Shown here one piece after another: positions 30,899 to 58,770 of a stretch of DNA of 64,000 nt. The DNA is from a virus (Duplodnaviria > Caudoviricetes), in IMG/VR virus record IMGVR_UViG_3300009540_000001, positions 32,001-96,000 of that record, one strand, 5' to 3'. Each line of letters begins with the position of its first letter. Within the stretch, counting starts at the first letter, position 1. Position numbers and translations under genes: made by a program. A model generated the notes under the pieces. That model was not told where the DNA came from. It did no database searches and was given only the letters and a program-made list of their open reading frames with translations.

Positions 30899-32943
30899 TC
30901 GATAATCTCCACGGCCGCAACCGGCCTCGCTACGTTCGCAGCGTACTTGCACTTCTCTCGGAAAGGCAAGACACCTTTCTCGTTACATGGGGCTTGATTC
31001 TCACAGCCCGCGCAGGCGACTACCTCAAGCAACGTCAGCGACACTCGTTGCTTGAACGACAAGACCGACGCGACGCGGAGGTCAAGCCCCGGCGTCGACG
31101 TCGACGTGAGCAACCGGTAGACCGTCATGGCCCGGGTCTGCCCCGGGCGGTTGAAGCGGTCCATCGCCTGCTGGTACTGAAGCGGATCCCACGGCAGCGA
31201 GTAAAAGAGCATGTAGTTCGCTGCCGTGAGCGTGATGCCGATGCCCGTCTTGATCTGCCCCAGGTAGAGGTGGCAGTCCGGGTCCGTCTGGAACTTGTCG
31301 ACCAGGGGCCCGCTCTTGCTGGAGTTTGTCCCGTCGACGCGGACGTAGCCGATCTTGTGCTCCTTGGCGTAACGCTCGAGGTCGTCGAGCTCGGTGGTGA
31401 AGTTCGCCCACACGATCAGCTTGTGGGTGGGGTCGCCTTCGAGGACGGTCTCCGCGATGTCCGAGAACGCCTCGAGCTTGGGGTTCTCGACGTCGCGCAG
31501 CACCTTCGTCGGAGGTGCGACGGGGAAGATCGGGCACTTCTTCGTGTAGGGTCGTACCTTCTCCTCGACGCACTTGAGCATGTGCTCGCACGCGTCGCAC
31601 ACGGCGTAGTCAGCCCCGAGGTTCAAGAACCCCGAGAGCAGCTGAAGCATCTTGTTGACGCGCGCGGCGCCGTGCGGCAGGCGTTGCGTGACGCTCTCCG
31701 GGGCGTTGTCCGGATCGAGCTCTCCGGGGTGCAGGTACGCCATCATCGGCTCCATCGAGGAGCGCATCTCGAGCACCAGTTCGTTGTACCGCGCGCGCTG
31801 CATCGGCCCGAGCTCGAACGGGACGTCGACGATGACGCACGGGGGAAGGTCGAGGCAGTCCTTCTTCTTCATGCGGTGGGCGACCTGGTCTACCCGGGCG
31901 TTCACCTCATTCAGATGGCGGAAGCCGACGACGACGTGCTTGTTCTTCGGCGACATCACGAGATGCCGCTCGAGGAACTTCGGGTAGTTGCACGAGAGCA
32001 ACGAGGGCGAGAGGAACATCAGCTGCGCGAACAGCTTGCGCGGATCGTCGCCAGCTGTGCCTGTGAGGCAGATGCGCCGCGAGGCCTTGGCGGAGAGCTC
32101 GAGCGCCGACTTCGTCTGCTCCGATTCGAAGTTGCCGAGGTAGTGGCTCTCGTCCGCGACGATCGTGTCGTACGGGAGCTGATAGAGCGGATGGGACGCG
32201 GCGTGCCGGAACTCCTCGATGGCCGCCTCCGTCAGCAGCGGCAGCTTGTAACGCTCCCGCTGCGTGGGGCTCAGCTCGAGCTCGAGCGTCGCCTTCTGCG
32301 CCCGCTCTCGCTCCATGCGAAGGCGGGTGTAGGAGGCGAGAACGATGTCGGCGTCCTGGGCCAGGGCCTCGGCCTCGCGCGACCCGTCCCACACGACGAC
32401 GCTCCATTCCCCTCGCGTGCACCGTTCCGTTTCCTTCTGCCACGCAGCGAGGACGACGGGTGGCGCCAGGACCAGGGCCCGGCGAAACTGCCCCCGCAGG
32501 CGCAGCAGGCGAAAGGCGTCGATCGCGGTGCGGGTCTTGCCGGTGCCGGGTTCCCACAACAGGAAGGTGCGCCACCAGTTCACGATCCGGGAGATGCCGA
32601 GGCGCTGGTGGCTGTACGGCGTAAAGCCTGGGGTGAAGAAGCCTGCCGGGATGTCGAGGGGGACGTCTGCCTTGGCCTGGTACGCCGCCTCGGCAGCTTG
32701 CCAGTCGAGCTCGGCCTCGCGTAGAAGCTTCAGGTGCTCCAAGGCGCTCTCGTCCCACGCTGCGTTCGGGGCGAGCTTGCGAATGTCCTCGAAGGTCCAG
32801 CGACCGAACGGAAAGTACGCGGGAAATTGCCAGGCCCCGTCGGCGTAGACGCCGCCCCATGCGCGGGAGACCCCGTGCTCTTTGGGTGCGGGTAGCCGAA
32901 AGACAGGCGTAGACTTGCGAAGTAGGTCGCCGCTTACGTGCAT
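30895..32943 (-). CDS. SNF2-family (SF2) helicase
   Basis: YSHQ, WEPGTGKT, DESH, LTGT, GIGITLT, QAMDRFNRPGQ. Likely start near 32943; the longer ORF-track start is antisense to the portal. Confidence 0.88.
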   Translation of the reverse strand: MHVSGDLLRKSTPVFRLPAPKEHGVSRAWGGVYADGAWQFPAYFPFGRWTFEDIRKLAPNAAWDESALEHLKLLREAELDWQAAEAAYQAKADVPLDIPAGFFTPGFTPYSHQRLGISRIVNWWRTFLLWEPGTGKTRTAIDAFRLLRLRGQFRRALVLAPPVVLAAWQKETERCTRGEWSVVVWDGSREAEALAQDADIVLASYTRLRMERERAQKATLELELSPTQRERYKLPLLTEAAIEEFRHAASHPLYQLPYDTIVADESHYLGNFESEQTKSALELSAKASRRICLTGTAGDDPRKLFAQLMFLSPSLLSCNYPKFLERHLVMSPKNKHVVVGFRHLNEVNARVDQVAHRMKKKDCLDLPPCVIVDVPFELGPMQRARYNELVLEMRSSMEPMMAYLHPGELDPDNAPESVTQRLPHGAARVNKMLQLLSGFLNLGADYAVCDACEHMLKCVEEKVRPYTKKCPIFPVAPPTKVLRDVENPKLEAFSDIAETVLEGDPTHKLIVWANFTTELDDLERYAKEHKIGYVRVDGTNSSKSGPLVDKFQTDPDCHLYLGQIKTGIGITLTAANYMLFYSLPWDPLQYQQAMDRFNRPGQTRAMTVYRLLTSTSTPGLDLRVASVLSFKQRVSLTLLEVVACAGCENQAPCNEKGVLPFREKCKYAANVARPVAAVEIIE

Positions 32944-32964
32944 GGCGCCCTCCTGGGAGTAGAG

Positions 32965-34689
32965 ATGTTCGACGGTGACTTCAATCCGATGGGAGGACAG
33001 AACGGTCCGGGTGCCTCGCACCCGAACCCGATGTTCGACTACACGACCTCCTTTGTCCCGAGGAAGCTCAAGGACCTCTTCAAGTGGGCAGAGTACCTTG
33101 GGTTCAACTCCGCGCACATTTACGCGGTAGTTCGGAAGTTCGGGGAGTACCCGATCACCCGGTTCATCTACGAGTCGACCTCTGAAGAGGAGAAGGCTCG
33201 GCACAAGAAGCTCTTCGAGGAGGACGTCCACCTCAAGGGGTTCATGACGCTCGCGTCCTACGACGTGTGGCTCTACGGCAACTCCTTCGTCAGCGTGTAC
33301 GAGCCGATCAAGCGGGACCTCATGTGCCCCGAGGAGGGGTGCAAGAGCCGTGAGGACATCACGGCGGCGGTCTACGAGTTCAACCTCGAGCGCCTCGAGT
33401 TCAAGCACGACTGCCGCGAGTGCCAGCGCAAGGGCGTGATCTCCATCGTCAAGGACGTGAAGATCAAAGAGGCCGAGCGCATCCGGCTCATCCGGTGGGA
33501 CCCGAAGCTGATCGACATCGAGCACAACCCGATCACGGGCGAGTCGGTCTACTACTACCAGATCCCGCGCGACATCGTCTCGAAGGTGAGGGGCGGCAAC
33601 AAGACGCTCATCAACCACATGCCGATGGAGATCTTGCGCGCCATGCAGGCGAACAAGACCTTCAAGTTCGGGCCCAACGCGCTGTTCCACCTGAAGATGC
33701 CGGGGCCGGCCGGCGTGCAGTCGCAGTGGGGCTACCCGCCGATCACCTCGGCGATCAAGAACTTCCTGTTCGCCTCCATCCTGCGCAAGGCCAACGAGGC
33801 CATCGCGCTCGAGCACATCACGCCGTTCCGCGTGATCCACCCGCTCTCGGCGAGCGCGCAGGGCGACCCCATCTCGACGATCAACCTCGGCCAGTGGAAG
33901 GACGAGATGGTCCGCAACCTGCGGGAGTTCCGCAAGGACCCGCTGCGCATCCAGTTCTCCCCTGTGCCCATCGGCGTGCAGAACATCGGCGGCGAGGGCC
34001 GCGCGCTCCTGACGCTCGGGGAGCTCCAGGAAGCGGAGAAGGCGATCGTCCTCTCCCTCGGTGTGCCGATGGAGTTCCTCACCGGCGGCCTCGGACAGAC
34101 GCGCGGCGAGATCACGCTGCGGATGATCGAGAACCAGCTACAGACCCACATCGAGAACCTGAACGCCCTGGTGCGCTGGATCGAGCGCAAGGTCGCCGCG
34201 TACATGTCGTGGGACACCATCTCGATGCGGCTCGCCGACTTCAAGATGATCGACGACATGGAGTCGAAGCAACTCAAGCTCCAGCTGTGGCAGTCGCAGC
34301 TCATCTCGAACTCCACGGTCGCGGAGCTCGTAGACGTCGACCTCGATCACGAGCGCAAGCAGCGCCGCGAGGACACGCTCGCCGATACCCGCGCGCAGCA
34401 GAAGACGCAGATCGAGGTGCAGAAGCTCCAGCAGTCGATCTCGCAGCAGGCGCAGCAGCAGGCGATTCAGTCGCAGGGCGGCATGGCCTACGACCAGCAG
34501 CAGATCCGAGCGCAGGCGGACATCAAGGTGCAGGAGCTCGCGCAGCTCGACCCGGGCTCGCGCCGCAGCCGTATGGACGCGCTCAAGGGCGAGGACTACG
34601 TGATGTACTGCGTCGTGCGTGACATGCTCGAGCAAGTGCAGCAAGATCAGATGCAGGCGATGAAGGCTCAAGGGCAGCAGGCGGCGTGA
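32965..34689 (+). CDS. Portal protein
   Basis: DVWLYGNSF, LFHLK...WGYPPI and LGVPMEFL patterns typical of portal proteins; Gln-rich C-terminal coiled coil; first gene of the morphogenesis block. Confidence 0.72.
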   Translation: MFDGDFNPMGGQNGPGASHPNPMFDYTTSFVPRKLKDLFKWAEYLGFNSAHIYAVVRKFGEYPITRFIYESTSEEEKARHKKLFEEDVHLKGFMTLASYDVWLYGNSFVSVYEPIKRDLMCPEEGCKSREDITAAVYEFNLERLEFKHDCRECQRKGVISIVKDVKIKEAERIRLIRWDPKLIDIEHNPITGESVYYYQIPRDIVSKVRGGNKTLINHMPMEILRAMQANKTFKFGPNALFHLKMPGPAGVQSQWGYPPITSAIKNFLFASILRKANEAIALEHITPFRVIHPLSASAQGDPISTINLGQWKDEMVRNLREFRKDPLRIQFSPVPIGVQNIGGEGRALLTLGELQEAEKAIVLSLGVPMEFLTGGLGQTRGEITLRMIENQLQTHIENLNALVRWIERKVAAYMSWDTISMRLADFKMIDDMESKQLKLQLWQSQLISNSTVAELVDVDLDHERKQRREDTLADTRAQQKTQIEVQKLQQSISQQAQQQAIQSQGGMAYDQQQIRAQADIKVQELAQLDPGSRRSRMDALKGEDYVMYCVVRDMLEQVQQDQMQAMKAQGQQAA

Positions 34690-35111: not shown

Positions 35112-35296
35112 CCGCGAACCCGGGGGCGACGTTCAGGTTCACACCCGACGCCGCCCCCGGCCAGTACTCATCACCACTCTGAGCTCTACGAGCGCAGAAC
35201 GTGGATGACGAACTTGTAGATCGCGCGAATCAGCAAGAGACACACCTCCTTTCCGTACGACCTTCTACCTGTATTTCCGCTAGACTTCGCACACCC

Positions 35297-38200
35297 ATGA
35301 GCGAAGTCACTCCCGTCCTCACGGACGCCGCCACGCTGCGCGCCAAGATTCACGAGAAGACGCAAGCCGCGCTGCGGTCGGTGTTCCCGCTCGACTTGAA
35401 GGGCCGCACGCTCGAGCTCCAGGACGTCAAGGTCCACGCGCAGGACTACAGCCCGAGCCAGCAGCGCCGCGCGCTGCTCACCGGCTCGAGTCTGTATGAG
35501 CCGGTGAAGGGCACCCTCGTGCTGAAAGACGGCGCGGGCAAGGTCGTCGACACGGCGAAGAACTTCACGCTCGCGCACGTGCCGTACCTGACGGAGCGGC
35601 ACACGCTCATCTCGGACGGCAACGAGTACCAGATGGCGAACCAGCTTCGCCGCAAGCCGGGCGTGTACACACAGCGCTCGGACAACGGCGAGCTCAAGAA
35701 CGTCTTCAACCTCGGTCGCGGGTCGAACTTCGACCTCGGGATGAACGAGGGCAAGGGGACGTTCCACATGACCTACGGGACGACCAACCTGCCGCTTTAC
35801 GCGGTGCTGCGTGGGATGGGCGCGTCGCACGAGGAGATCGCCGGGAAGTGGGGCGCGGGCGTCGCGAAGGCCAACGAAGCCGCGCACGGGCACCAGATCG
35901 AGAGCACGATCGCGAAGCTGTACGGCAAGCTCGAGCACCCGGCGCTGATCAAGCCCGGGGCGACGCACGAGGAGAAGCTGACGGCGGTCCACAAGCGCTA
36001 CGCGTTGTCGACGCTCGACCCGGAGGTCACGAAGCAGACGCTAGGCCACGGGCACAGCTCGGTCACGCCGACGGCGCTCCTCGACGCCTCGGCGAAGATG
36101 CTCCGCGTTCACAAGGGCGAAGACGTCGTCGACGACACCGACTCGCTCGCCTTCAAGACGTTCCACTCGATGGACGACTTCTTGGCGGAGCGCATTCGGC
36201 TGACGGCGCGCGCATGGGCCCCGAAGGCCCGCATGGCGCTCAACGGCAAGACGGAGATCCGCGAGGCCCTGAAGCCCGGGCCGTTCTCCTCGGCGATTCG
36301 GAAGTTCGTCACGACGTCGAACCTCGCGGCGGTTCCCCCGGGCATCAACCCCATGGAGCTGATCGACCACGCGGTGAAGGTGACGTCGCTCGGCGAAGGC
36401 GGCATCCCCTCGGACCGCGCGATCCCCTTCGACGCGCGCATGATCCACAACACGCACTTCGGGGCGCTCGATCCCGTGCGCACGCCCGAGAGCAATCACT
36501 CGGGCGTGGACATCCGCGCAACGATCGCCGCCCACCGCGACGACGCCGGCAACCTCTACACCGTCTTGCGCAACGTGAAGTCCAACAAGATGGAGTTCGT
36601 CCGCGCGGGCGATCAGCGCAAGTACGTCGTCGCCTTCCCCCACCAGCAGCTGAAGGGCGACGTCGACGCCTTCCGCGACGGCAAGCTCGAGAAGGTCGAC
36701 GCCTCTACGGTCACCCACCAGCTCGACCACATCAAGCACGCGTACTCGCCCGCGACGTCCATGGTGCCGTTCCTGCACTCGATGCAGGGCAACCGCGCCA
36801 TCATGGCCTCGAAGTTCGGGACGCAGGCGCTGCCGCTGCTCGAGCGCGAGGTACCGCTCGTGCAAGTGCGCTCGCACTTGGACAGCGGGGAGTCGTTCGA
36901 ACAGGTCTACGGGCACATGATCAACCCGACGGCGCCTGTGGCGGGGACGGTCAAGAAGGTCGACGGGGACTATGTGTGGATCGAACCGCACCGCGTAAAG
37001 AAGGCGGAGGATCGCCCTGTCCTCTATCAGAAGCGTGTCGGCCCGCACGCCTTCAACATCGAGATCGAGAAGGAGTTCCACGTTCGCGGGAACAAGTTCC
37101 CCTCGTCTTCGGACTACGGGCACCTCCCTGGGTACGTCGGGCCTGACGGCGACAGCCTCGACTTCTTTGTCGGGGATCGCCACGACGGGGTCCTTGCCGT
37201 CTACGACAAGCAAAAGAACTTCGACGGGAAGGGCTGGAAGACGACAGACAAGAAGTTCGTCGTCGGGATGAACCCCACCGAGTACGCGGCGTGGCAGAAG
37301 CACCCGGCGATGACGGCACACCCGCAAATCCGCTTCGCCAACGAGCGTCGCTTCAAAGACTGGGACGACCTGAAGTCGCACATCGACACCCACTACAAGC
37401 GTCCGGAAGGGCACGAGAAGGAAGCCGCCGAGAACCTGGTCAAGGTCCCCTACCAGACCCAGTTCCCCTTCCCCTCGAAGACCTCGCTTCACCACGACGT
37501 CATCGTCAAGCCAGGCGACAAGGTCGAGGCCGGGCAGCAGCTCGGCGAGTCGAACTACACCCGCAAGGGCACGCTCGCGCTCGGGAAGAACCTGCTCGTC
37601 GGCTACATGGCGTACCACGGCGTGAACTCCAACGACGCCATGGTGATCTCGGAGGGCGCGTCGAAGAAGCTCACCAGCGAGCACATGTACCGGGAGATTT
37701 ACCCGGTAAACGCGCGCATCGAGCTCAACACCGCGAAGCACAAGCTGTACTACGGCTCGAAGTACCAGCCGCAGCAGTACGCGCACCTCGACGCGGACGG
37801 CGTGGTCAAGAAGGGTTCGCGGGTCAACCCGAAGGACATCCTCGTCGCCGGATTGACGAAGCAGCAGGTGTCAGGGTCCGACGCCCTCGTGGGCCGCATC
37901 TCCAAGGCGCTGACGAAGCCGTACAAGGAGGTCGTGCTCGAGTGGACGCACGGCGGTCCCGGCGTCGTGGAGGACGTCGTCCGCACCGCGTCGCAGATCA
38001 CGGTGCTGATCAGCACGCAGGAGCGCATGCAGATCGGCGACAAGCTCGCCGGTCGCCACGCGAACAAGGGCGTCGTCTCGCGCATCGTCCCCGACCACGA
38101 GATGATCCGAGACGAGCAGGGCCGCCCCCTCGACGTGCTCATCACGAGCGCTGGCGTCATCAGCCGCGTGAACCCGAGTCAGATCCTCGAGACGTGCGCC

Positions 38201-40183
38201 GGCAAGGTCGCGGAGAAGACCGGCAAGCCGGTGATCTTCGACAACGCCGCCGGCGTCAACGCCGTGAAGTGGGTACGCGGCCTGATGAAGGAGCACGGCG
38301 TAAAGGACAAGGAGGTCGTCTTCGACCCGCTCACGAAGCGCCACATCACGGGCTCGGATGGGAAGGGAGTACTTGTAGGTAGACAGTATATCTACAAGCT
38401 CTTCAAGTCGACGGACACGAACTTCGCCGGGCACGGCGTGGGCCCGTACGACCTGAACGAACAGCCGCTGAAGACCGGCGGCGACGACAGCGCCAAGGGC
38501 CTCGGCAAGATGGAGTTCGACGCGTTGCTCGCGCACAACGCTCGCAACTTCCTCAACGAGGCTGCGACCGTGCGCGGCACCAAGAACGAGGAGTTCTGGA
38601 AGGCCGTGCAGCTGGGCCTGCCCATGCCCGCGCCGAAACCGTCGTTCGCGTTCAATAAGTTCGTCGGAATGCTCGAGGGTGCGGGCGTGCGCATCGACAA
38701 GCGCGGGAGCAAGTTCCACATCCTGCCGCTGACCGACAAGGACGTCACGAAGCGCTCGGCAGGGGCGATCGAGAACAACAAGACGCTCCAGGCGAAGGAC
38801 CTGAAGCCGGAGAAGGGCGGGCTGTTCGATCCCTCGCGCACGGGAGGGCCGCAAGGGACGCTGTACGCACACATCGACTTGCACGAGCCGATTCCCTCGC
38901 CCGTGTTCAAGGAGCCGGTGCGCCGCTTGCTCGGCATGACGGAGAAGCAGTTCGACAACGCGCTCGGCGAGCACGGCGGCGGGTGGTTTAAGACTCAGCT
39001 TGACGCCATCAGCCCCGACGCGAAGCTGAAAGACCTGCGCGCACGGATGACGAAGGCCAACGGCCCCGTCTTGAACGACCTCGTCAAGCAGGTGAAGTAC
39101 CTCGAGGCGCTGAAGACGCACAAGCTCAGCCCGAGCGAGGCGTACATCATCTCGAAGGTACCGGTGATCCCGCCGGTTTTCCGTCCCATTCTCCCAGGAG
39201 TCGCAGACCCCTCGCAGCTGATGGTCGCCGACGCCAACAAGCTGTACGCGCAGCTGATGGACGCAAACCACACGCTGAAGAACACTGCCTTGCCCAGTGA
39301 CTTGGGGAAGCATCGCAACGAAGTCTTCTCGACGGTCGAGGAGCTCTACGGCACGACGTTGCCGCGCGACCCGAAGCTTCAGCAGCAAAAGGTGAAGGGG
39401 TTCCTCTCCACCATCGCGGGCGTCGGCACGCCGAAGGGCGGGTTCTTCCAGCGCAAGCTGATGCGCAAGAACATGGACATCAGCGGGCGCGGCACAGCGG
39501 TGCCGGACTCGAACCTCGGCATGGACGAAGTCGGCATCCCTGAGAAGATGCTCTGGGGCATGCTCGACAAGCTCGTCGTCGCTCGACTCATGCGGAAGGG
39601 CTACCCCGCGCTCGACGCGCGCGAAATGGTCAAGAAGCAGACGGCGGCGGCGCGCGAGGCGCTCATGGAAGAGACGCGCGAGCGCCCCATGCTCATCAAC
39701 CGGGCCCCGACGCTGCACCGCTGGTCGATCGTGGCGGCGTACGCGAAGCCCGTGCAGGGCAAGACGATCCGCGTGAGCTCCTTCACGGAGAAGGGCCTCA
39801 ACCTCGACTACGACGGCGACACCTTGCAGGTGCACGCCCCGCTCACCCCGGGCTCGATCGAGGACGCCAAGAAGATGACGCTCTCGAACATGATCCTGAG
39901 CGATCAGCAGCGGAACAAGCTCCTCGCCTTTCCGCAGCACGAGGCGATCATCGGCTTCACCCTCGCAGCCAAGGGCGGCACAGGCACCGGCCCCGTCAAG
40001 AAATTCGCGACGCGCGACGAAGCCATGGCCGCCTGGCGCCGTGGAGAACTCCAGCTGAACGACGCGATCCAGGTGGCGAACGTGAAGCACGCGTACGAGG
40101 AAGAAGACGACGATTCCATCTCTCCCGACGTCGACGTATCCTTCTACCCGGCCGAACACGTCACCGGCGTGGGCCTGGAGTAA
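35297..40183 (+). CDS. rpoBC: Multisubunit RNA polymerase: beta fused to N-terminal half of beta'
   Basis: Beta motifs NQLRRKPGVY, HNTHFGALDPVRTPES, NRAIMASKFGTQA, LALGKN, GDKLAGRHANKG, SRVN. Beta' motifs KPEKGGLFD, VIPPVFRP, NRAPTLHR and catalytic NLDYDGD (39800-39820). Confidence 0.93.
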   Translation: MSEVTPVLTDAATLRAKIHEKTQAALRSVFPLDLKGRTLELQDVKVHAQDYSPSQQRRALLTGSSLYEPVKGTLVLKDGAGKVVDTAKNFTLAHVPYLTERHTLISDGNEYQMANQLRRKPGVYTQRSDNGELKNVFNLGRGSNFDLGMNEGKGTFHMTYGTTNLPLYAVLRGMGASHEEIAGKWGAGVAKANEAAHGHQIESTIAKLYGKLEHPALIKPGATHEEKLTAVHKRYALSTLDPEVTKQTLGHGHSSVTPTALLDASAKMLRVHKGEDVVDDTDSLAFKTFHSMDDFLAERIRLTARAWAPKARMALNGKTEIREALKPGPFSSAIRKFVTTSNLAAVPPGINPMELIDHAVKVTSLGEGGIPSDRAIPFDARMIHNTHFGALDPVRTPESNHSGVDIRATIAAHRDDAGNLYTVLRNVKSNKMEFVRAGDQRKYVVAFPHQQLKGDVDAFRDGKLEKVDASTVTHQLDHIKHAYSPATSMVPFLHSMQGNRAIMASKFGTQALPLLEREVPLVQVRSHLDSGESFEQVYGHMINPTAPVAGTVKKVDGDYVWIEPHRVKKAEDRPVLYQKRVGPHAFNIEIEKEFHVRGNKFPSSSDYGHLPGYVGPDGDSLDFFVGDRHDGVLAVYDKQKNFDGKGWKTTDKKFVVGMNPTEYAAWQKHPAMTAHPQIRFANERRFKDWDDLKSHIDTHYKRPEGHEKEAAENLVKVPYQTQFPFPSKTSLHHDVIVKPGDKVEAGQQLGESNYTRKGTLALGKNLLVGYMAYHGVNSNDAMVISEGASKKLTSEHMYREIYPVNARIELNTAKHKLYYGSKYQPQQYAHLDADGVVKKGSRVNPKDILVAGLTKQQVSGSDALVGRISKALTKPYKEVVLEWTHGGPGVVEDVVRTASQITVLISTQERMQIGDKLAGRHANKGVVSRIVPDHEMIRDEQGRPLDVLITSAGVISRVNPSQILETCAGKVAEKTGKPVIFDNAAGVNAVKWVRGLMKEHGVKDKEVVFDPLTKRHITGSDGKGVLVGRQYIYKLFKSTDTNFAGHGVGPYDLNEQPLKTGGDDSAKGLGKMEFDALLAHNARNFLNEAATVRGTKNEEFWKAVQLGLPMPAPKPSFAFNKFVGMLEGAGVRIDKRGSKFHILPLTDKDVTKRSAGAIENNKTLQAKDLKPEKGGLFDPSRTGGPQGTLYAHIDLHEPIPSPVFKEPVRRLLGMTEKQFDNALGEHGGGWFKTQLDAISPDAKLKDLRARMTKANGPVLNDLVKQVKYLEALKTHKLSPSEAYIISKVPVIPPVFRPILPGVADPSQLMVADANKLYAQLMDANHTLKNTALPSDLGKHRNEVFSTVEELYGTTLPRDPKLQQQKVKGFLSTIAGVGTPKGGFFQRKLMRKNMDISGRGTAVPDSNLGMDEVGIPEKMLWGMLDKLVVARLMRKGYPALDAREMVKKQTAAAREALMEETRERPMLINRAPTLHRWSIVAAYAKPVQGKTIRVSSFTEKGLNLDYDGDTLQVHAPLTPGSIEDAKKMTLSNMILSDQQRNKLLAFPQHEAIIGFTLAAKGGTGTGPVKKFATRDEAMAAWRRGELQLNDAIQVANVKHAYEEEDDDSISPDVDVSFYPAEHVTGVGLE

Positions 40184-41235: not shown

Positions 41236-43035
41236 ATGCAAACCTCCGTCGGCCAGTTCCTGATTAACGACGTCCTCCCCGACGGCTACAAGGTCAACGG
41301 CCCCATCAACAACAAGGGGCTGCACGACCACGTCGTCGGCCTCGCCAAGAGCGACCCGGCGAAGTACGTCCAAACGATCATGGCGCTCAAGCGGCGTGGC
41401 GACGAGATCGCCACGCATGAGGGCATCACCGTGGGGCTCGACGACATCGAGCCGGACTACGAAGCCCGCGACGCGATCATGAAGCCCGCCATCCTGAAGA
41501 TGAAAGGGCTCAAGACCGACAAGGCGAAGGAGACCCACATCCTCGAGACGCAAGCGGCGATGACGGCGCAGACGAAGCTCCACAAGGGCTCGATGACGCA
41601 CATGGCGCTCTCCGGCGCGCGCGGCAACATCGCGCAGCTGATGAAGATCGTCTCGACCCCGCTCGCCACGGTGCATCCGAAGCACGGCGTGTCGCACACG
41701 CTGTTCGATCGCTCGTACGCCGAAGGGCTCACCCCCGCGCAGTACTGGCTCGCAGGGCCTGAGATCCGCGCGAACGAAGTCGCGGCGCGCATCTCCGTGT
41801 CGGAGCCCGGCGAGATGGCGAAGGTCCTCGTCGCGAACACCGTGTCGCAGATCGTGACGCAGTCGGACTGCGGGACGATGAACGGCGTAAAGATGGGGGT
41901 CGACGACTCCCACACGCTGGATCGGCACACGCAGGAGACGCACGGTCTGCACAGGAATACGCTCGTGACGCCGCAACTCCTTCAGAACTTGAAGGCGCGC
42001 GGAGTAGGGGACCTTCTAGTAAGGTCTCCGATGACCTGCATCGCCCCTCGCGGCGTCTGTCAGATGTGCCAAGGCCACAACGAGAAGGGCCACCTGCACC
42101 CGATCGGCATGACCGTCGGCGTGCGCGCCGCGCAGGCCATGGCCGAGCCGCTGACCCAGATGGCGCTCTCGAGCCGCCACGGCACGCTGAGCGTCAAGGG
42201 AACGACGCAAGCCCCCACGGGGCTGAAGGGCGTGCGCCAGCTCTTGGATGTGCCTGCGGCGTTCAAGGGCGAAGCGACGCTCGCCCCCGAAGCGGGTGTC
42301 GTGGCGAAGATCGAGGTTGCGCCGCAAGGCGGGCACTTCATCACCGTGGGCTCGAAGAAGACGTACGCTCGGCCGGACTTCGCGCTGCGCGTGCGTGTCG
42401 GCGACCACGTCGAGTTCGGCGACGTCATGACCGACGGCGTCCCGCACCCCGCGAAGGTCGTAGCCGCCAAGGGCCTCGGCGCAGGGCGCAAGTACTTCGT
42501 CGACGCGATGCACAACCTGTACAAGGACGAAGGCGTCAACCTCGACAAGCGCCACCTGGAGCTCTTGGCGAAGTCGGAGATCAATCACGTCAGGTTGCTC
42601 GAGGCGGACCCGCACCACCCGGAGTTCCTCAAGGGAGACGTCATCAACTACAACTCCTTCCGGGACGCATATCACAAGGACTCGGAGAAGGTCCGCCTCT
42701 CCGACGCCGTAGGGCACCGCCTCGGGCAAGAGGTTCTGCATCACACCGTGGGCACGGTTCTCACGCCGTCCGTCCTCAAGGAGCTCGACAAACACGGGGT
42801 CCGTGAGGTAGCGGTTACCAAGGCCATGCCTCGGCTCGAGTTCGTGATGAAGCCGTTCGCGATGAACCCGCTGCTCGAGCAGGACTGGATGGCGCGCCTC
42901 GCCCACCGGTACCTGAAGTCCACAGTGCAAGAAGCAGCCCACTTCGGCGAAGTCGCAGACGTCCACGGGACCCACCCCGTCCCGGCGTACGCTTACGGTG
43001 CGGAGCTCCATCACGGGCCCGGAGGAATCTTCTGA
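41236..43035 (+). CDS. rpoC: RNA polymerase beta' C-terminal half
   Basis: SGARG, SYAEGL plus bridge helix, DCGT, VRSPMTC...GVCQMC zinc site, trigger loop AAQAMAEPLTQMALSSRH, GVNLDKRHLE. Confidence 0.92.
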   Translation: MQTSVGQFLINDVLPDGYKVNGPINNKGLHDHVVGLAKSDPAKYVQTIMALKRRGDEIATHEGITVGLDDIEPDYEARDAIMKPAILKMKGLKTDKAKETHILETQAAMTAQTKLHKGSMTHMALSGARGNIAQLMKIVSTPLATVHPKHGVSHTLFDRSYAEGLTPAQYWLAGPEIRANEVAARISVSEPGEMAKVLVANTVSQIVTQSDCGTMNGVKMGVDDSHTLDRHTQETHGLHRNTLVTPQLLQNLKARGVGDLLVRSPMTCIAPRGVCQMCQGHNEKGHLHPIGMTVGVRAAQAMAEPLTQMALSSRHGTLSVKGTTQAPTGLKGVRQLLDVPAAFKGEATLAPEAGVVAKIEVAPQGGHFITVGSKKTYARPDFALRVRVGDHVEFGDVMTDGVPHPAKVVAAKGLGAGRKYFVDAMHNLYKDEGVNLDKRHLELLAKSEINHVRLLEADPHHPEFLKGDVINYNSFRDAYHKDSEKVRLSDAVGHRLGQEVLHHTVGTVLTPSVLKELDKHGVREVAVTKAMPRLEFVMKPFAMNPLLEQDWMARLAHRYLKSTVQEAAHFGEVADVHGTHPVPAYAYGAELHHGPGGIF

Positions 43036-45841: not shown

Positions 45842-48049
45842 ATGACCATGGACGGCGGCTTCCCCCTTTCTCAGTCCCCGCGCACGCAGGGCTTTCAGCA
45901 GCCCCCGGCAGGCCCGCAGGACGAGGAGGAGATCTTCTCGACGAGCTTCAGGGACCTCGCGTACCGCGCCTTCCAGAAGACGCAGCCGCAGCTGTTCCCC
46001 CAAGTCGTCACCTTTCGCGTGCTCGCCGTCGACGCCCCCAACGGGGAAGGTGTCGGCGCGTTCATCGTCAAGGCCGAGGGAGAGATCCTCTTCGTGCCGG
46101 TGGTCATCGCGGACAACGCCGTGAAGCCGCTCGACATGTTTTACGCGCGTTCGAAGGACCGGTTCTACCCGCTCACGTCCGAGTGGGTCGACCGCCTTCA
46201 GATGGACTCGGTGACGTCTCTCGGCGACGGCGTGAAGCCCCCGAAGGACCTGAACACCGACGTCGACATCCGCAACGTGATCGTGCCGCCGACGACGGGT
46301 CGGTACAGCTACGCGGAGCTCGAGCAGGAGTGCGTCGCGCCCTTTCGGGCGGCAGCGGCCTACGGTCGCGAGAAGCGCGCGTCCGAGACGCTCGTGTTCC
46401 CTGAGTTGCTCTCTCGCATGCCCGACGGCACGAAGATCGCGGCGGCCGAGTACCTGCGCGCGCACGTCGGCGTCTTCAAGAAGCTGGCCGAGGTGTACGG
46501 CGTAAAGACGCTGGACATGGCCCTGCGCCCCTCGCGTACGAAGGTCGCCCACGACCATCGCCTCGAAGTCCCCATGAAGCACGACATCTTCATGGCGGAC
46601 GCGTCGATGCCCTTCCAAGACGTGAAGAAGAGCCTCAGCAAGGACGAAGTGGGCCCCGCGTACCAGGCCATTCGACTGCACGGCTTCTACGTCAAGGATC
46701 GCCGCAAGAGCGTCCCCAACGACGTCGACGTCGTCGGTGAGTCGACCTTCGCGCTCGAGCGCCCGGAATCCTCGGGGCTTTACCGCGTGTTCCTCACGGA
46801 CGGCACGGTCGAGAAGGCCCTCGTCGTCGTGAACCCCATCGACATGAACGGCGGGGAGATGTCGGACACGTACCAGGCGAACCGACAGTACCGTCCGCGC
46901 ACCGAGTACCAGGTGTTCTTCCAGGACGGGCGAAGCGGCCTCGTCGATACGCTCCTCGCCGAGCCTGTCGCGACGGAAGCCTTCGAGGACATCGAAGAGT
47001 TCCTGAAGGGCTGCACCTCCGAGCGTCCGGGCAACGACGAGCACGGCGCTTTCGTGTGCGTGTGCGGCACGACGCTGCGCGCGACGCACATCTTCAAGGC
47101 GTGCGACGTGTCGAGCCATAACGACCTCGTGACGATGAAGGCGAACTCGGAGTTCGGTCCGCCCGTGATCTTCTCGAAGAAGATGTCGGGCCCGGCCGTC
47201 ATCCGACCCGCTGGCCAGAACACCATGGTCATCCCTGGCTCGTACAAGTGGTTCAAGTCGAAGACGAAGACGCAGCCCGCCGCGCCCTTCCCCGGCGCCA
47301 AGCCGTACGTCAGCGCGGACCTGTTGACGGAGCAGTCGTTCCTCACGAACGCCGACATGATCCACCGCATGGTCGAGCGCGGCGTCGAGAAGACCGCGTC
47401 CGCGAAGATCTACTGCGTGAAGCACGGCTCGGACTTCGTCATCGAACCGGGCGGCTTCCCGCTCAAGGCCGTCGCGGCCACGGTGAAGCTCGCGTCGCGG
47501 TACGGCGTCACCCTCGGTGACGCCTCGCGCGTTGTCGAGGCGACGGCCAACGGCCTGCGCTTTACGGCGTACGCCACGCCGAAGCTGGCCGCTGGCGAAG
47601 CGCCTCCCCAGGCTCCGCAGCCCGACCCGGCCGCTGAAGCCGCAGCACAGGCCGCCATGCCCCCGCCCCCGCCCTCGGGGATGGAGCTCGCCCTCGCCGA
47701 GAAGATGCAGCTGCTTCAGCAGCAGCAAGCGTCCATCGCGCAGATGCAGCAGCTCGTGAGCGAGCTCCAGCAGCGCGCAATGGGCATCGACCAGGGCGGC
47801 GGGGCGATGGCCGCGCCGATGGCCGCCGCAGGGATGCAGGCGGGAGCTCCGGCGGACCCCGGCGCGATGGCGCCGGTGCCGGGCATGCCCGGCGACCCGG
47901 CGATGGCACAAGGCGGAGCGCCGCAGGGTGCGCCCCAAGACCCGAACGCCATGGCGGCGCAGGGCGCGCCCCAAGACCCGAACGCGATGCCGATGGACCC
48001 GAACGCGATGCCTGCGCAAGGGCAGGACCCGTTCATGGGAGGCATGTAG
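45842..48049 (+). CDS. K-x-A-rich putative head/core protein (N-part; in frame with 48074-48445 across one TAG)
   Basis: EKRAS, TKIAA, KKLAE, TKVAH, EKTAS, VKLAS, PKLAA; Q/P/M/G-rich tail with GAPQDPNAM repeats. Confidence 0.65.
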   Translation: MTMDGGFPLSQSPRTQGFQQPPAGPQDEEEIFSTSFRDLAYRAFQKTQPQLFPQVVTFRVLAVDAPNGEGVGAFIVKAEGEILFVPVVIADNAVKPLDMFYARSKDRFYPLTSEWVDRLQMDSVTSLGDGVKPPKDLNTDVDIRNVIVPPTTGRYSYAELEQECVAPFRAAAAYGREKRASETLVFPELLSRMPDGTKIAAAEYLRAHVGVFKKLAEVYGVKTLDMALRPSRTKVAHDHRLEVPMKHDIFMADASMPFQDVKKSLSKDEVGPAYQAIRLHGFYVKDRRKSVPNDVDVVGESTFALERPESSGLYRVFLTDGTVEKALVVVNPIDMNGGEMSDTYQANRQYRPRTEYQVFFQDGRSGLVDTLLAEPVATEAFEDIEEFLKGCTSERPGNDEHGAFVCVCGTTLRATHIFKACDVSSHNDLVTMKANSEFGPPVIFSKKMSGPAVIRPAGQNTMVIPGSYKWFKSKTKTQPAAPFPGAKPYVSADLLTEQSFLTNADMIHRMVERGVEKTASAKIYCVKHGSDFVIEPGGFPLKAVAATVKLASRYGVTLGDASRVVEATANGLRFTAYATPKLAAGEAPPQAPQPDPAAEAAAQAAMPPPPPSGMELALAEKMQLLQQQQASIAQMQQLVSELQQRAMGIDQGGGAMAAPMAAAGMQAGAPADPGAMAPVPGMPGDPAMAQGGAPQGAPQDPNAMAAQGAPQDPNAMPMDPNAMPAQGQDPFMGGM

Positions 48050-52826: not shown

Positions 52827-55805
52827 GTGGAGAAGCTCCTCGAACTCGACTCCCACTTCCCCAAGACGGGGGAGCCGACCGTCTCTCTCGTCGCCTGGGG
52901 TGACGGGCGCGGCGGGCTCACGCTCGAGAAGCGTGCGTTCGCGGAGAGCCGCTCTCCGATGTACGACTTCCTGAAGACCGTGCAGCCCGAGGCCGGGTGC
53001 TCGTTCATCCTCGTGAACGCCCTCGGCGCGTACGAGTACTACGACGACAACCGCAACGGCGACGGCTTCCCAGCGCGCCCCTTCAAGGTCGGCGAGCTCG
53101 CGACGTGCGGGCACCCCGAGTGCTCGAAGTCCCTCGACGGGTGGATCTCGGACGAGGAGACGCTCGTGCGTCACTTCAAGACGTTCGAGAAGCACGGGAA
53201 CATCTACCGGAACCACAAGAACTCGGACCCGTCGACGTCGCTCGGCTACATCCAGAAGGCCATCTGGAACGACCGGATGCACCGGGTCGAGCTGCTGCTC
53301 AAAGTCGTGAACGACCGGGCGCCGGACCTCGCGGAGCGTATTGCGTCGCACGACTCGATCCCAGTTTCGATGGGCTGCTTGGGGGTAGGTACCCCCATCA
53401 CGCTGGCTGATGGACGGCGTAAGGTCGTCGAAGATGTTGTCGTGGGCGACCGCGTACGAACACACTTGGGCAACGCGCAACGTGTGTTCGAGTTGCACCG
53501 TCGGACCTACGTCGGCGTGGTGCACACCATCAAGCCCGAGGGCGGGCCTCCGCTCACGGTCACGCACGAGCACCCATTCTTTGTTGCCAAGTTCCACGAC
53601 GTCAAACGGCGCCATGGGAAGAAGGAACGACCGTGGCTGGATGATGCTTGCGTCAACGGCGTATGGAAGTTGGCTAATGAACTCGACGCGGACAGACACC
53701 TACTGCTGCAACCGATCGACCGGACGGTTGAGACACCGGAAGAAATCACGCTGCCTCTCGCGAGGCTCCTCGGCTATTACCTAGCCGAAGGGAGCTTGCT
53801 CCGCGATGAGAACGGCCTGCATCTGGGCATCGACCTCAACTGCCACCAGGACGACGAACTGCTGAAAGAGCTCCCGTCACTGATCGAAGCGTTGCACTTG
53901 CCGGAGCCGTACATCTCCGTGCGTTCGCACAGCGCTTGCGCACGTAGCGTCCGTGTCTACTCGCAACACTTGGCCCTCCTGTGCCGCGACTTGATGGGCG
54001 TCTACTCCAAGAAGAAGTTCCTCGACGCGTCCGTCATGCTGTGGGCACCAGAACTCCAACGTGCGCTCTTCGGCGCCTACGCCAACGGTGACGGCTGCGG
54101 TAACAAGAACGGCAGCCTCCAGATCTCGACGAGCTCGGAAGAGCTGGCGACGCAGCTGCTCTCGTTGCTTCCGCGCTTCGGGGTACTCGCGAGCCATCAA
54201 GTGCTCGAGCACAAGCCCAACAAGCTCGTGAAGATCCCGACGACGGAGCACGTCGTCTACATTGGCAAGCAGTGGGCGCAGGGTCTTCGCGACGTATGCG
54301 CGAAGATCAAGACCTCCGAGGTCAAAGCGAAAAAAGAAGTTCGCAAGATCATCGGGGACTATATTGTCATCCCAATCCGTAACATCGACCGTACGGCCGG
54401 CTCCATGCCGGTCTACAACTTCGAAGTCGAAGAAGACAACAGCTACGTGGCGGGCGGCGTCGCCGTTCACAACTGCCATGTCCGCTGGGACGTCTGCACC
54501 ATCTGCGGCCACCGCGCCCCGACGCGCGCGCAGTACTGCGAGCACGCGCTGCGTTCGCTCCGTCAGGTGCTCCCCGACGGGCGCAAGGTCTCGGTGCTGA
54601 ACCCCTCTCCCAAGTTCTTCGACATCTCCTTCGTCTTCCGCCCGGCGGACCCGACGGGCTGGATGCTGAAGAAGGTGGCGGACGTGTCCCACGGCCGACC
54701 CTCGGCCGAGCTCGGCGAGCGCGTCGCCGCGTATCGCTCCCGGGCCTTGGAACTCCGCACCAACACCCAGAAGGTCGCCTCCGACCTCGCGGGCCCCTAC
54801 GGACGTGTCGCCGCCGACGTCGTCTCCGAATGGCCGGCGCTCGAGGGCCAGGCGCTCGACACGCTCGCGAAGCTCGGCTCGCTCTCCGACACGCTCTCGA
54901 CGCTCACCGCCGTGGGCGTCGTACTGAGCAACGCGGAGGTCACGCAGCTGATGGCGAAGAAGGCGGGGATCCCCTGCCCGCCGTCGGACCTCGACCGCCT
55001 CTCGGCCCTTCAGCCCGCGCTCGAGGAAGTCCTTACCCGCTACCCCTCAGCCGCCGCGAAGCTCGCCGAGCTCGTGGACTTCCGTCTTGACGGCGTAAAG
55101 CCCCAACGTCTCGCCGCCATCACGGACTGGGTCGAGAAGCGCGGCGGCTACGCGGACTACGCCCGCACGGTCGCCTACGCGCCCTCCGACACCTTCCAGC
55201 TGCCCTTCGGACCGGGCGCGTCGTACCGGGCATATCAGCCCGGTCGCACCGAGCTTCTGACGATGACCGACCCGAGCACCGGGCAGCAGTACCAGACGAC
55301 GCGCGGCGCTGCGCAAGACGCAGGGAACGAGAAGAGCCGCAGCCAGCTCGCGGGTACCGCGCTGCTCGGCGCCATGTACGCCGGCGGGCTGCGCGCGGCG
55401 CTCGGGCGTCGCGCGGGCCTGTGGACGATCCCTGTCGGGCTCGCCGCCGGGTGGGCGACGACCAAGGCGATCAAGGACAACTTCCCGGCGTTCCGGCACC
55501 CGACGTACATGACCGACCAGGGGATCCCGGTGTCAGGTGGGACAGAGTTCAACAAGGTCTCTGCGTTCGAGCGCCCCACACCGGCAGACGTCGTGCACAA
55601 GGCGGCACTCGACGAACGCCCCTTGGCGAAAATCGCCTCGCACTCCCCGAACTTCTCGTCGTGGCTCGCTTCGACTTCCCTTTCGGAGAAGGTCGCGGCT
55701 ATCGTTGCGGGTGCCGAGACGGACGCTCACGACGTCGGCGCCCCGCCCGAGCTGGACCTCGCCGTCGTCGTCCACAACGTCTGCCACATCGTGTGGGCCG
55801 ACTAA
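52827..55805 (+). CDS. Prohead (capsid maturation) protease, intein-containing, with K-x-A-rich C-terminal extension
   Basis: YRNH (candidate catalytic His), VSMG (candidate catalytic Ser), CTIC...C-x-H zinc motif, FFDISFVFRPAD resembling the E-x-S-x-V-x-x-PA end of HK97/herpes-type proteases; upstream of the capsid gene. Confidence 0.72.
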   Translation: MEKLLELDSHFPKTGEPTVSLVAWGDGRGGLTLEKRAFAESRSPMYDFLKTVQPEAGCSFILVNALGAYEYYDDNRNGDGFPARPFKVGELATCGHPECSKSLDGWISDEETLVRHFKTFEKHGNIYRNHKNSDPSTSLGYIQKAIWNDRMHRVELLLKVVNDRAPDLAERIASHDSIPVSMGCLGVGTPITLADGRRKVVEDVVVGDRVRTHLGNAQRVFELHRRTYVGVVHTIKPEGGPPLTVTHEHPFFVAKFHDVKRRHGKKERPWLDDACVNGVWKLANELDADRHLLLQPIDRTVETPEEITLPLARLLGYYLAEGSLLRDENGLHLGIDLNCHQDDELLKELPSLIEALHLPEPYISVRSHSACARSVRVYSQHLALLCRDLMGVYSKKKFLDASVMLWAPELQRALFGAYANGDGCGNKNGSLQISTSSEELATQLLSLLPRFGVLASHQVLEHKPNKLVKIPTTEHVVYIGKQWAQGLRDVCAKIKTSEVKAKKEVRKIIGDYIVIPIRNIDRTAGSMPVYNFEVEEDNSYVAGGVAVHNCHVRWDVCTICGHRAPTRAQYCEHALRSLRQVLPDGRKVSVLNPSPKFFDISFVFRPADPTGWMLKKVADVSHGRPSAELGERVAAYRSRALELRTNTQKVASDLAGPYGRVAADVVSEWPALEGQALDTLAKLGSLSDTLSTLTAVGVVLSNAEVTQLMAKKAGIPCPPSDLDRLSALQPALEEVLTRYPSAAAKLAELVDFRLDGVKPQRLAAITDWVEKRGGYADYARTVAYAPSDTFQLPFGPGASYRAYQPGRTELLTMTDPSTGQQYQTTRGAAQDAGNEKSRSQLAGTALLGAMYAGGLRAALGRRAGLWTIPVGLAAGWATTKAIKDNFPAFRHPTYMTDQGIPVSGGTEFNKVSAFERPTPADVVHKAALDERPLAKIASHSPNFSSWLASTSLSEKVAAIVAGAETDAHDVGAPPELDLAVVVHNVCHIVWAD
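53376..54473 (+). mobile_element. Intein with LAGLIDADG endonuclease (366 aa) in the protease
   Basis: Starts CLGVGTPITLADG; block B VTHEH; LLGYYLAEGS and FGAYANGDGC; ends VYNFEV...AVHN followed by Cys. Confidence 0.93.
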
Positions 55806-55823: not shown

Positions 55824-56372
55824 ATGAACCTCGACAGCGTCCTGAAGAACCTCGACACGACCCTCGCCCCCGCCGCCGAGAAGACGGCCAGCGAGCGAGC
55901 CCCGACCACCCGCGCGAGCTCGCTCGTCGACGACGCCGTGCGCTCGGTGACGACGCGCTCGAAGACCGCCTCGGCTTCGGCCCCGGTCGAAGGCGCGCTC
56001 GACAAGCTCGCCGCGCACATGGCGAGCCAGTCGGCAGACGGCGCGGCGAAGGTCGCGCACACCATCGGGCAGGCCATGGCGGACGGCTTCGTCTCGCAGA
56101 TGTCGGTCTACGAGAACGCGGCCGAGCAGCTCAACGCGAAGACCGCGTCGGAGATCGACCCCGACCTGCTCAAGATCGCTGCCTTCGCGAAAGAAGACCC
56201 GCGCGGCTTCATGGCGTGGGCCTCGAAGCAAGCGGGCTCGGACGACGCGATCGTCAAGCAGGCCGAGATGGAGGCCGCTGAAGAGCTCGAGGCCGCGACC
56301 TTCAAGGGCGCCGCCGCTCACTGGGACGCCGGGTACGAGGTCGGCGCGCTGATGGGCTCGTCCAGGGAATGA
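55824..56372 (+). CDS. K-x-A-rich scaffold-like head protein
   Basis: 9 of 11 lysines are in K-x-A; helical and acidic; AGGAG SD. Confidence 0.65.
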   Translation: MNLDSVLKNLDTTLAPAAEKTASERAPTTRASSLVDDAVRSVTTRSKTASASAPVEGALDKLAAHMASQSADGAAKVAHTIGQAMADGFVSQMSVYENAAEQLNAKTASEIDPDLLKIAAFAKEDPRGFMAWASKQAGSDDAIVKQAEMEAAEELEAATFKGAAAHWDAGYEVGALMGSSRE

Positions 56373-57849: not shown

Positions 57850-58770
57850 ATGTCTTACCAGACGGAAACCACGCAGCAGCAAGCGACGCTGCTGAACCAG
57901 CGCTTCATCAGCATGCTCGAGGCAGGGCAGACGAAGCAGGCCGAAGACCAGGGCACGGCGTTCATTCGCTCGATCGTCCGCCAGGAGTGCGCCGCGCGCC
58001 TGGTGATCGTGCCGCAAGGCCTGACGAACGACGAGCTCGATCGCGACGTGAACAGCGATCTGCCCCGCAAGATCGTCGAGAAGGAGCCCGACTCCTCGGC
58101 GACGTACGTGCAGTTCGACGGCACCCCGCGCGCCCGCTGGTTCCGGGGCAAGCGCTACGTGGTCTACTTCGGTAAGACCCAGAGCGACATGTTCGTCAAG
58201 AGCAAGTTCAAGCTCATGACGTACCAGAACGACATCCGCAAGATCCTCGCTGACAACAGCGTGAAGGACCTCGCGGACCAGGAAGACATCCTCTTCCGCC
58301 GCACATGCCTCACGCTCGTGAACCGCAACGCCGCCGTGCAGCGCACCCAGATGCCGGCCTTCACGAACGCCGCGTTCGTCAAGGCGTTCCAGGCGATGGA
58401 CAAGCGCCGCCGCCCCATCGGCAAGATGCTGATGACCAACGCCCTGTACCGCGAGGCGATGAACCTCCCGGCGACCCAGGTCGGCTCGGACATCGCGAAG
58501 CGCCACTACATGGAGGGCGCCGACAAGGAGTCGATGCTCTGGGGCATCCCCGCCATTCAGACGGCGAAGACCGACATCTACAACCCCGAGGAGTGCTGGG
58601 TGTTCTCGCCGCAGAACTTCCTCGGCAACTTCTTCCTCCTGCAAGACGCCACGCTCTTCATCGAGCAGCGCGCCGACATCATCACGTTCTTCTCGTACGC
58701 CGCGCCGGGCATCGGCATCGGCAACAGCGAGTCGATGCAGCAGCTGGTCTTCGGCTCCGTCCCGACGTGA
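57850..58770 (+). CDS. Major capsid protein
   Basis: 306 aa, AAGGAG SD, highly biased codons. Positioned after protease/scaffold/decoration genes and before neck genes. LWGIP.I and GIGIGN near the C-terminus fit an HK97-fold pattern; N-terminal TKQAE. Confidence 0.72.
   Translation: MSYQTETTQQQATLLNQRFISMLEAGQTKQAEDQGTAFIRSIVRQECAARLVIVPQGLTNDELDRDVNSDLPRKIVEKEPDSSATYVQFDGTPRARWFRGKRYVVYFGKTQSDMFVKSKFKLMTYQNDIRKILADNSVKDLADQEDILFRRTCLTLVNRNAAVQRTQMPAFTNAAFVKAFQAMDKRRRPIGKMLMTNALYREAMNLPATQVGSDIAKRHYMEGADKESMLWGIPAIQTAKTDIYNPEECWVFSPQNFLGNFFLLQDATLFIEQRADIITFFSYAAPGIGIGNSESMQQLVFGSVPT

Follow-up and report, generated by a model that had tools for sequence, protein, structure and literature searches.

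A pyrophosphatase-type domain between K-x-A motifs in a phage RNA polymerase beta loop: a candidate slot for capsid cargo

The InPase domain, polyvalent virion proteins and the trimming of a virion polymerase by a prohead protease are already known. Iyer et al. (2017, PMC5512222) described InPase as type I inorganic pyrophosphatases (PPases) that have no hairpin between core strands 1 and 2. The domain occurs in polyvalent proteins of phages and in fusions with portals; its packaging and injection have been predicted, and it has been proposed either to clear pyrophosphate (PPi) or to hydrolyse a nucleotide-like signal (PMC5512222). Here we describe a domain, probably of this branch, that is inserted in a loop of the beta part of a fused RNA polymerase and bounded on both sides by the motif K-x-A. 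The gene lies in a stretch of 64,000 nt, positions 32,001–96,000 of the virus record IMGVR_UViG_3300009540_000001 (Duplodnaviria; Caudoviricetes), referred to below as the window. On balance we favour the view that the loop is a protease-delimited cargo slot.

Packaged polymerases have been described in two settings that bear on this locus. phiKZ-like phages package a multisubunit polymerase, and the beta-N subunit of 201phi2-1 is trimmed by the prohead protease (PMC5694885). Phage gp21-family proteases follow a three-residue P3-x-P1 rule ending in Glu, and those of phiKZ (gp175) and SPN3US (gp245) auto-cleave next to their own fold (PMC5694885). In purified particles of Salmonella phage Arash, gp206 gave the most spectra of any protein (3516), and gp216, a homolog of the C-terminal half of beta', was also abundant; 116 proteins were detected in that preparation, and the authors allow for carry-over of abundant proteins (PMC10585845).

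A domain inserted in a hairpin of RNA polymerase beta

The virus record is complete (172,374 bp, with direct terminal repeats), and G+C content across the window is 63–70%. The polymerase open reading frame (ORF) matches the Pfam families Rpb2_6 (1.8e-46) and Rpb1_2 (3.1e-17) as well as Rpb2_3 and Rpb1_1, and contains the metal motif NLDYDGD; it therefore encodes beta fused to the N-terminal half of beta'. The frame is open from a GTG at 35201 (35201–40183, 1660 codons), and an identical database protein (P0003) starts at 35297. The polymerase is 34% identical to Arash gp206, Arash being the closest cultured relative. The gene and the elements of the loop are the following.

35297..40183, + strand: fused RNA polymerase beta and N-terminal half of beta', 1628 aa from ATG
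36944..36988, + strand: strand of the sandwich-barrel hybrid motif before the loop (GTVKKVDGDYVWIEP), the N flank, conserved in all homologs
36998-37426, + strand: insert of 143 residues, from KKA to KEA, in frame within the polymerase ORF
36998..37006, + strand: first K-x-A delimiter, KKA, a putative prohead-protease site (first-site consensus E-K-[KT]-A-[EA]-[DE], 107 homologs)
37040..37417, + strand: folded core of the InPase-type cargo domain (from the structure model, the structure search VIA and profile searches)
37418..37426, + strand: second K-x-A delimiter, KEA (last-site consensus E-K-T-A-A-[DK]-[DK]-D, 82 homologs)
37433..37537, + strand: resumption of the hybrid motif after the loop (NLVKVPY...VKPGDKVEAGQ), the conserved C flank

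In 116 homologous fused polymerases the two flanks, GTVKKVDGDYVWIEP and NLVKVPY...VKPGDKVEAGQ, lie 2 to 533 residues apart, the shortest forms being a turn of 2–3 residues; in insert-free homologs the flanks are contiguous save for 2–11 residues. Because the spacing drops to a tight turn in homologs, the 143–148 residues present in the window interrupt a hairpin. This confirms a true insertion of about 140 aa; the hairpin loop that receives it belongs to the sandwich-barrel hybrid motif and lies shortly upstream of Rpb2_6 (hybrid-binding/catalytic double-psi beta-barrel). A sequence-only reading of this DNA had claimed such an interruption, and the translation and the insert-free homologs agree with it. 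The translation also reproduces exactly the elements named in that reading, FNIEIE, DYGHLPGYVGPDGDSLDFFVG and DKKFVVG, and the boundaries KKA and KEA.

Residues 747–785 of the polymerase give a weak Pfam match to the RnfC barrel-sandwich hybrid. The N flank aligns to residues 581–653 of Mycobacterium tuberculosis beta, and to about 660–702 of an Escherichia coli-length chain; by extrapolation, the equivalent loop in bacterial beta lies about 40 residues beyond this alignment. G+C content at third codon positions is 0.86 in the insert and 0.91 in the rest of the gene, which does not indicate a recent foreign origin. With all the cargo modules described below as tblastn queries, neither the window nor the complete 172-kb genome yielded a second copy of a module.

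The insert was modelled with AlphaFold2 from an alignment of 50 sequences, comprising polymerase inserts and free-standing relatives. The mean predicted local distance difference test score (pLDDT) was 92.8, residues 1–10 averaging 74 and residues 141–143 averaging 55. When the model was searched against the Protein Data Bank (PDB) with Foldseek, the top 50 matches were all family I PPases (best E 2.6e-3). VIA returned 142 chains at Z of at least 5, with Z 8.7 and a root-mean-square deviation (rmsd) of 2.9 Å over 112 aa to Arabidopsis PPA1 (4lug_A); many bacterial, archaeal and eukaryotic PPases scored at about Z 8, residues 15–140 of the model aligning to essentially whole PPase chains. As a Z near 8 is just moderately over the stated background of the tool, the assignment is carried by the uniformity of the structural matches together with the sequence evidence. 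The earlier description of the insert as PPase-like is therefore matched by a family I PPase fold.

The model contains the OB-type PPase barrel (OB, oligonucleotide/oligosaccharide-binding) with two C-terminal helices. According to DSSP, strands 17–23 and 39–47 are linked by a 15-residue coil, residues 24–38 being free of strands. The hairpin that is missing here presumably corresponds to the one carrying K29, E31 and R43 in E. coli PPase. Among the 50 sequences, D39, Y40, G41, P44, D50, G51, D55, G59, K86 and G90 are at least 90% conserved, and E22, D52 and D84 vary between Asp and Glu only. The insert thus has the signature of two-metal catalysis: D-G-D-x-x-D with an upstream Glu, a downstream D-x-K and the tyrosine of D-Y-G. 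We take these conserved residues to be equivalent to E20, Y55, D65, D67, D70, D102 and K104 of E. coli PPase. Judged from the model and this conservation, the insert is probably a complete, active family I PPase of the hairpin-less InPase type. To our knowledge, activity in the InPase branch has been predicted and not measured.

Profile searches link the insert to InPase through its relatives. Modules in the same loop of three other polymerases exceeded the gathering threshold of the Pfam InPase family PF18823, at 65 bits with a full-length match (P0089), 47.9 bits (P0005) and 45.7 bits (P0009); the last also reached the classical PPase family PF00719, at 24.8 bits. PF00719 had no match anywhere in the genome of the window. 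A clean profile, built from window-type sequences alone after exclusion of three similar-length inserts of another type (module C, below), matched the InPase modules of P0089, P0005 and P0009 at 54, 50 and 33 bits. Matches of a first module hidden Markov model to module C were rejected as artefacts, that model having been contaminated by the same three inserts. Searched alone against PDB sequences, the insert gave nothing relevant (one chance match, E 1.4), and a profile of the insert alignment against PDB was dominated by polymerase rows and uninformative on the insert.

Cassettes exchanged in the loop

Of the 111 loops that reach 6 aa, 107 contain K-x-[A/S], and no insert of 90 aa or longer has fewer than two such sites, a pattern beyond chance. 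Short loops read H-x-E-K-x-A-A-x-D-A, as in HAEKRAAAGDA, and loops of 15–45 aa mostly contain two K-x-A motifs, for example HGEKKAEDEKTAAKDD. Long inserts were split at every K-x-[A/S] and the pieces clustered, which gave the following modules.

Module A: InPase, 136–143 aa, 58 pieces
Module B: about 93 aa (P0094, P0095, P0097)
Module C: 123 aa (P0045, P0054, P0079), an apparent small alpha/beta domain with a G-H-S-R-G motif
Module D: about 163 aa, P-loop kinase-like, with sub-threshold matches to AAA_18/AAA_33
Module F: about 190 aa (P0055)
Module G: about 185 aa (P0058), with two Gly/Ala-rich hydrophobic stretches and a weak glycine-zipper match
Modules H and I: in P0067

InPase was the commonest cargo, in 45 of 56 filled loops, in a sample biased towards it by a query region that contained InPase. 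Modules stand alone or in the combinations A-B, B-A, C-A, C-A-A, D-A, A-D, A-D-G, G-A, A-B-D and F-A, so that a loop holds one to four unrelated modules with their order shuffled among close relatives. Modules B, C, F, H and I had no match in Pfam or PHROGs, and module F retrieved nothing informative from the ESM Atlas (score 0.79). The cargo modules without Pfam matches are candidate injected proteins.

In a tree built from the flanks only, the basal lineages have tight, motif-free turns, followed by lineages with loops of 6–11 aa and one site; in the crown group, cargo types are intermixed among near-identical polymerases. Two polymerases with 250-aa flanks that are 100% identical differ in that one has the short loop HAVKTAAAGDA (P0071) and the other HAVKKA, a kinase-like cassette and ...EKTAAGDA (P0062). 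An empty two-site loop (P0053) and a loop with InPase (P0015) have N flanks 100% and C flanks 99% identical. Flanks 97–99% identical surround modules A (P0004), G (P0058) and F-A (P0007), and the sister of the window polymerase (P0045, flanks 93–96% identical) bears module C in place of InPase. Across relatives the loop thus carries variable cargo between K-x-A sites, as the sequence-only reading had surmised it might. Among InPase modules only 35–70% identical, the active-site residues are kept.

The prohead protease and K-x-A outside the loop

The order portal, polymerase, C-terminal half of beta', protease, capsid is common to the window and Arash. The genes of this block, and other ORFs with K-x-A, are listed here.

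32938..34689, + strand: portal protein gene, directly upstream of the polymerase gene (4e-108 to the Arash gp204 portal)
41236..43035, + strand: C-terminal half of beta', a separate gene (Pfam Rpb1_5, 5.7e-15, and Rpb1_4; homolog of Arash gp216, 3.7e-71)
52827..55805, + strand: T4 gp21-like prohead protease with a LAGLIDADG intein, candidate reader of K-x-A, ortholog of Arash gp222
55824..56372, + strand: Ala-rich scaffold-like protein, 9 of 11 Lys in K-x-A (9 motifs against 2.5 expected from shuffles, p<0.001)
57850..58770, + strand: major capsid protein gene (2.7e-67 to the major capsid protein of Arash, gp226)
57934-57942: capsid K29-Q-A31 near the N-terminus, found in capsid homologs including that of Arash
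12775-13791: ORF of 338 aa beside the terminase gene, far from the head block, with 12 K-x-A against 3.2 expected and 12 of 19 Lys in the motif
49183-49998: ORF with 8 K-x-A against 2.3 expected
56562-56891: ORF with 4 of 5 Lys in K-x-A

The protease was not recognised in Pfam or PDB sequence searches, and the fold alone revealed it. Its model is that of an ortholog without the intein (P0273, 634 aa; N-exteins 87% identical), built from 45 sequences with a mean pLDDT of 84. Residues 1–240 of this ortholog matched T4 gp21 (5jbl_B) in VIA with Z 13.0 and rmsd 3.4 Å over 147 of 164 aa, and herpesvirus assemblins ranked next at Z 6–7.6. In the family, S181 of the AVSMG motif, where the intein is inserted, and several His are invariant. 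K-x-A is conserved at residues 35–37 (37 of 45 sequences) and 250–252 (45 of 45) of P0273, and both copies fall in the only segments of pLDDT below 50 that flank the protease fold. On this model, the protease domain lies between two disordered linkers that each carry K-x-A, the layout expected for autoprocessing. No other protease was seen in the window. The intein, at about 53376–54473 by Pfam matches, lies directly after the invariant AVSMG serine motif; many orthologs of about 630 aa are intein-free, and some have inteins at the same or other sites.

Strong enrichment in K-x-A is found in the scaffold-like protein and in the ORFs at 12775-13791, 49183-49998 and 56562-56891, the first of which is likely a further substrate of the K-x-A system. 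Replication and tail genes are not enriched in the motif, nor is there an excess in terminase, ribonucleotide reductase or the large unassigned ORFs. A partial exception is DNA polymerase A (17932-21324), with 16 K-x-A against 8.5 expected (p 0.008), which involve just 18% of its Lys. Outside the loop, the two polymerase subunits contain 6 K-x-A where 14.7 are expected (p 0.006). Arash gp220, gp223 and gp225 are likewise enriched. Since Arash shows this enrichment in head proteins yet has a motif-free polymerase loop, the motif appears to be older than the loop site. Pfam and PHROGs gave nothing for most ORFs of the head block.

In the capsid protein, K29 is present in 120 and A31 in all of 121 homologs, Arash included, and K-x-A lies within residues 27–31 of both the window and the Arash proteins. 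The capsid family has at least 942 homologs at E of 1e-5 or below, on contigs of up to about 198 kb, and matches neither Pfam nor PHROGs; it marks a big, almost uncultured phage clade that includes Arash.

The combination of InPase and K-x-A also occurs without a polymerase. Five non-polymerase proteins of 277–500 aa from related metagenomic phages (P0127–P0131) contain an InPase module flanked on both sides by K-x-A; they start with M-x-K-x-[A/S] and have hydrophobic Gly-rich segments. The same InPase cargo therefore rides other carriers.

Further observations concern other features of the window. The palindrome TTTAC-N3-GTAAA occurs exactly 3 times, at 16347, 37698 and 40278, against 0 expected from shuffles, one copy lying within the polymerase gene. 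At 36989, a one-mismatch relative of the genome-wide site TAC-N3-GTAAAG coincides in part with the codons for HRVK where the insert begins; no link to the protein motif was found. A class II (B12-dependent) ribonucleotide reductase gene (6414-9875, − strand) carries a LAGLIDADG intein by Pfam, and inteins are frequent in polymerase homologs as well. The adjacent ORFs 45842-48049 and 48074-48445 match residues 2–127 and 518–610 of the Arash structural protein gp218; as they match its two ends, an in-frame stop seems to divide this head protein, whether as a case of readthrough, a mutation or a sequencing error. A scan of IMG/VR with a single protein returned just one related locus.

Release of the cargo, alternatives and known systems

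We infer that the polymerase is packed in the head, because of its homology with the Arash polymerase and the position of its gene between the portal and head genes. On the favoured reading, it would enter the prohead, where the gp21-like protease would cut the exposed K-x-A sites, presumably after Ala by analogy with the P3-x-P1 rule of the family. Cuts on both sides of the insert would free a pyrophosphatase of about 16 kDa inside the capsid and leave beta nicked, its several pieces staying together as in the naturally split phiKZ-type polymerases. Polymerase pieces and cassettes would then be ejected with the DNA, and the freed InPase could hydrolyse PPi or a pyrophosphate-bearing nucleotide during early transcription.

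The sequence-only reading had named both a tethered PPase and a cargo cut out by the head protease, and the comparative evidence favours the second over the first. A permanently tethered domain would remove PPi from within the beta loop, beside the polymerase, and so draw transcription forward, K-x-A being an uncut linker or a recombination joint. That PPi is the product of the polymerase speaks for such an arrangement, as do the PPi clearance proposed for InPase (PMC5512222), the conserved catalytic acids and the prevalence of InPase among filled loops. The prevalence is however biased by the query, and the slot in near-identical polymerases holds glycine-zipper or kinase-like modules or nothing, so that polymerase function does not need the PPase. 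Release is favoured because the other cassettes are unrelated to PPase, because empty one-site and two-site loops exist, and because the same delimiters bound InPase in non-polymerase carriers and flank the fold of the protease itself in disordered linkers. In particular, it is hard to see why a soluble polymerase would permanently retain a hydrophobic, membrane-type glycine-zipper module. We regard permanent tethering as unlikely.

Release might instead be due to a host protease or another phage protease, or take place only after ejection, and not at head maturation by the gp21-like enzyme. The assignment of the protease to the motif rests on their co-occurrence, phage enzymes of the gp21 family prefer Glu at P1, and post-injection processing has been considered for polyvalent proteins (Iyer et al., PMC5512222). 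Against this stand the window's single recognisable protease and the density of K-x-A in the scaffold-like proteins and at the capsid N-terminus, a classic footprint of a prohead protease. Herpesvirus proteases of the same fold cut after Ala, in the context [V/L/I]-x-A followed by Ser, so a rule of cutting after K-x-A and before Ala, Ser or Glu is within the repertoire of the fold family. Release by such other means seems to us rather improbable. Still less credible, and in our judgement very improbable, is that the insert has no enzymatic role, a permissive loop having gathered mobile domains and the K-x-A motifs having been inherited from an ancestral loop. Bacterial beta and beta' do tolerate large lineage-specific inserts in surface loops, and inteins do populate these polymerases. 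The retention of active-site residues in divergent modules, the motif at every module boundary and the sharply reproducible module lengths all speak against mere decoration, and rapid turnover with exact delimiters argues for selection on both cargo and delimiters.

Several observations weigh against the protease-delimited cargo slot, or limit what can be drawn from the evidence for it. Arash, the sole relative with virion data, has no K-x-A in its polymerase loop, so packaging of a cargo-bearing polymerase is an extrapolation. Known phage proteases of the gp21 family cut after Glu and not after Ala, and cleavage at K-x-A in this clade is inferred. Some K-x-[A/S] sit within modules; the motif alone therefore cannot suffice for cutting. 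The invariant K-x-A of the capsid protein is consistent with the model and is not specific to it, because conservation is high throughout the N-terminal segment. Across the family, K-x-A is only modestly depleted in the rest of the polymerase (ratio 0.81), and this is weak evidence since the KA dipeptide is depleted too. The repeated motif could also reflect recombination joints or a linker requirement. As regards the domain itself, PF18823 scores the insert at 21.7 bits, below its gathering threshold of 26.8, and the model lacks the hairpin with the phosphate-binding Lys and Arg of classical PPases, so that the substrate may not be plain PPi.

More tentatively, and with confidence falling a little short of even, we propose that the loop could be a general, programmable capsid-loading slot. 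A protein bounded by K-x-A would be carried in, excised after Ala as by assemblins and injected, the polymerase would be split post-translationally, and the cassettes would be exchanged as a toolkit in an arms race. We found no paper that reports a PPase or an array of cargo modules within a beta loop of RNA polymerase, and none on a K-x-A code. If the cuts take place, cargo nested in a loop of a packaged protein between protease sites would be a new route of capsid loading, in contrast to a terminal targeting peptide or a linear polyprotein, and K-x-A would be a new specificity for the T4 gp21/assemblin fold in a large uncultured clade. The loop would then also supply a catalogue of small, quickly exchanged modules, most of them unknown (B, C, F, G, H and I), as strong candidates for proteins that act early in host takeover or against host defence. 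In laboratory strains, the slot with its delimiters would moreover serve, ready for use, to package foreign proteins into phage heads. Cleavage aside, a PPase physically coupled to an RNA polymerase bears on the old idea that PPi removal aids early viral transcription.

Compared with the InPase (PF18823) of polyvalent proteins and portal fusions, the domain described here has the same hairpin-less type I PPase OB barrel, metal-binding acids and phage setting, and the virion packaging, injection and roles put forward for that InPase match those proposed here (PMC5512222). There, InPase is a bead in a linear multidomain protein or part of a portal fusion, whereas here it is nested in an RNA polymerase beta loop. 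Processing of polyvalent proteins is ascribed to a metallopeptidase (MPTase) domain; here the delimiters are K-x-A motifs with no metallopeptidase, and no peptidase domain was found in the polymerases scanned. The loop shares with polyvalent proteins the presence of several unrelated effector-type domains that vary between relatives, with virion delivery suggested by Arash, and differs from them in having no linear, bead-like architecture with an MPTase.

The virion polymerases of phiKZ-like phages are likewise of multisubunit type, packed in the head and ejected, and a gp21-type protease cuts head proteins at a three-residue motif, as proposed here; in 201phi2-1 it is an N-terminal region that the beta-N subunit loses (PMC5694885). 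In those phages the motif is [S/A/G]-x-E, the polymerase is encoded in 4–5 genes and a terminal propeptide is removed. In the present phage K-x-A takes the place of that motif, a single chain comprises beta and the N-terminal half of beta', and what would be excised are entire enzyme domains from an internal loop. Arash (PMC10585845) shares with the window the gene order, the enrichment of K-x-A in the head block and the K-x-A at the capsid N-terminus; its polymerase loop is a short turn, HIKGEDGKEHRVDF, with neither K-x-A nor cargo. The internal proteins and Alt of T4 are non-structural proteins delivered via the capsid after cleavage at a short motif by the gp21 fold, as proposed here, the difference being that an N-terminal capsid-targeting sequence with the motif [L/I]-x-E is borne by separate small proteins, whereas here the polymerase would be the carrier. 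Lastly, the lineage-specific insertions of bacterial beta and beta' resemble the present insert as large domains tolerated in surface loops. The bacterial insertions consist of repeated modules specific to the polymerase and persist across phyla, whereas here unrelated enzymes turn over between phages with identical flanks.

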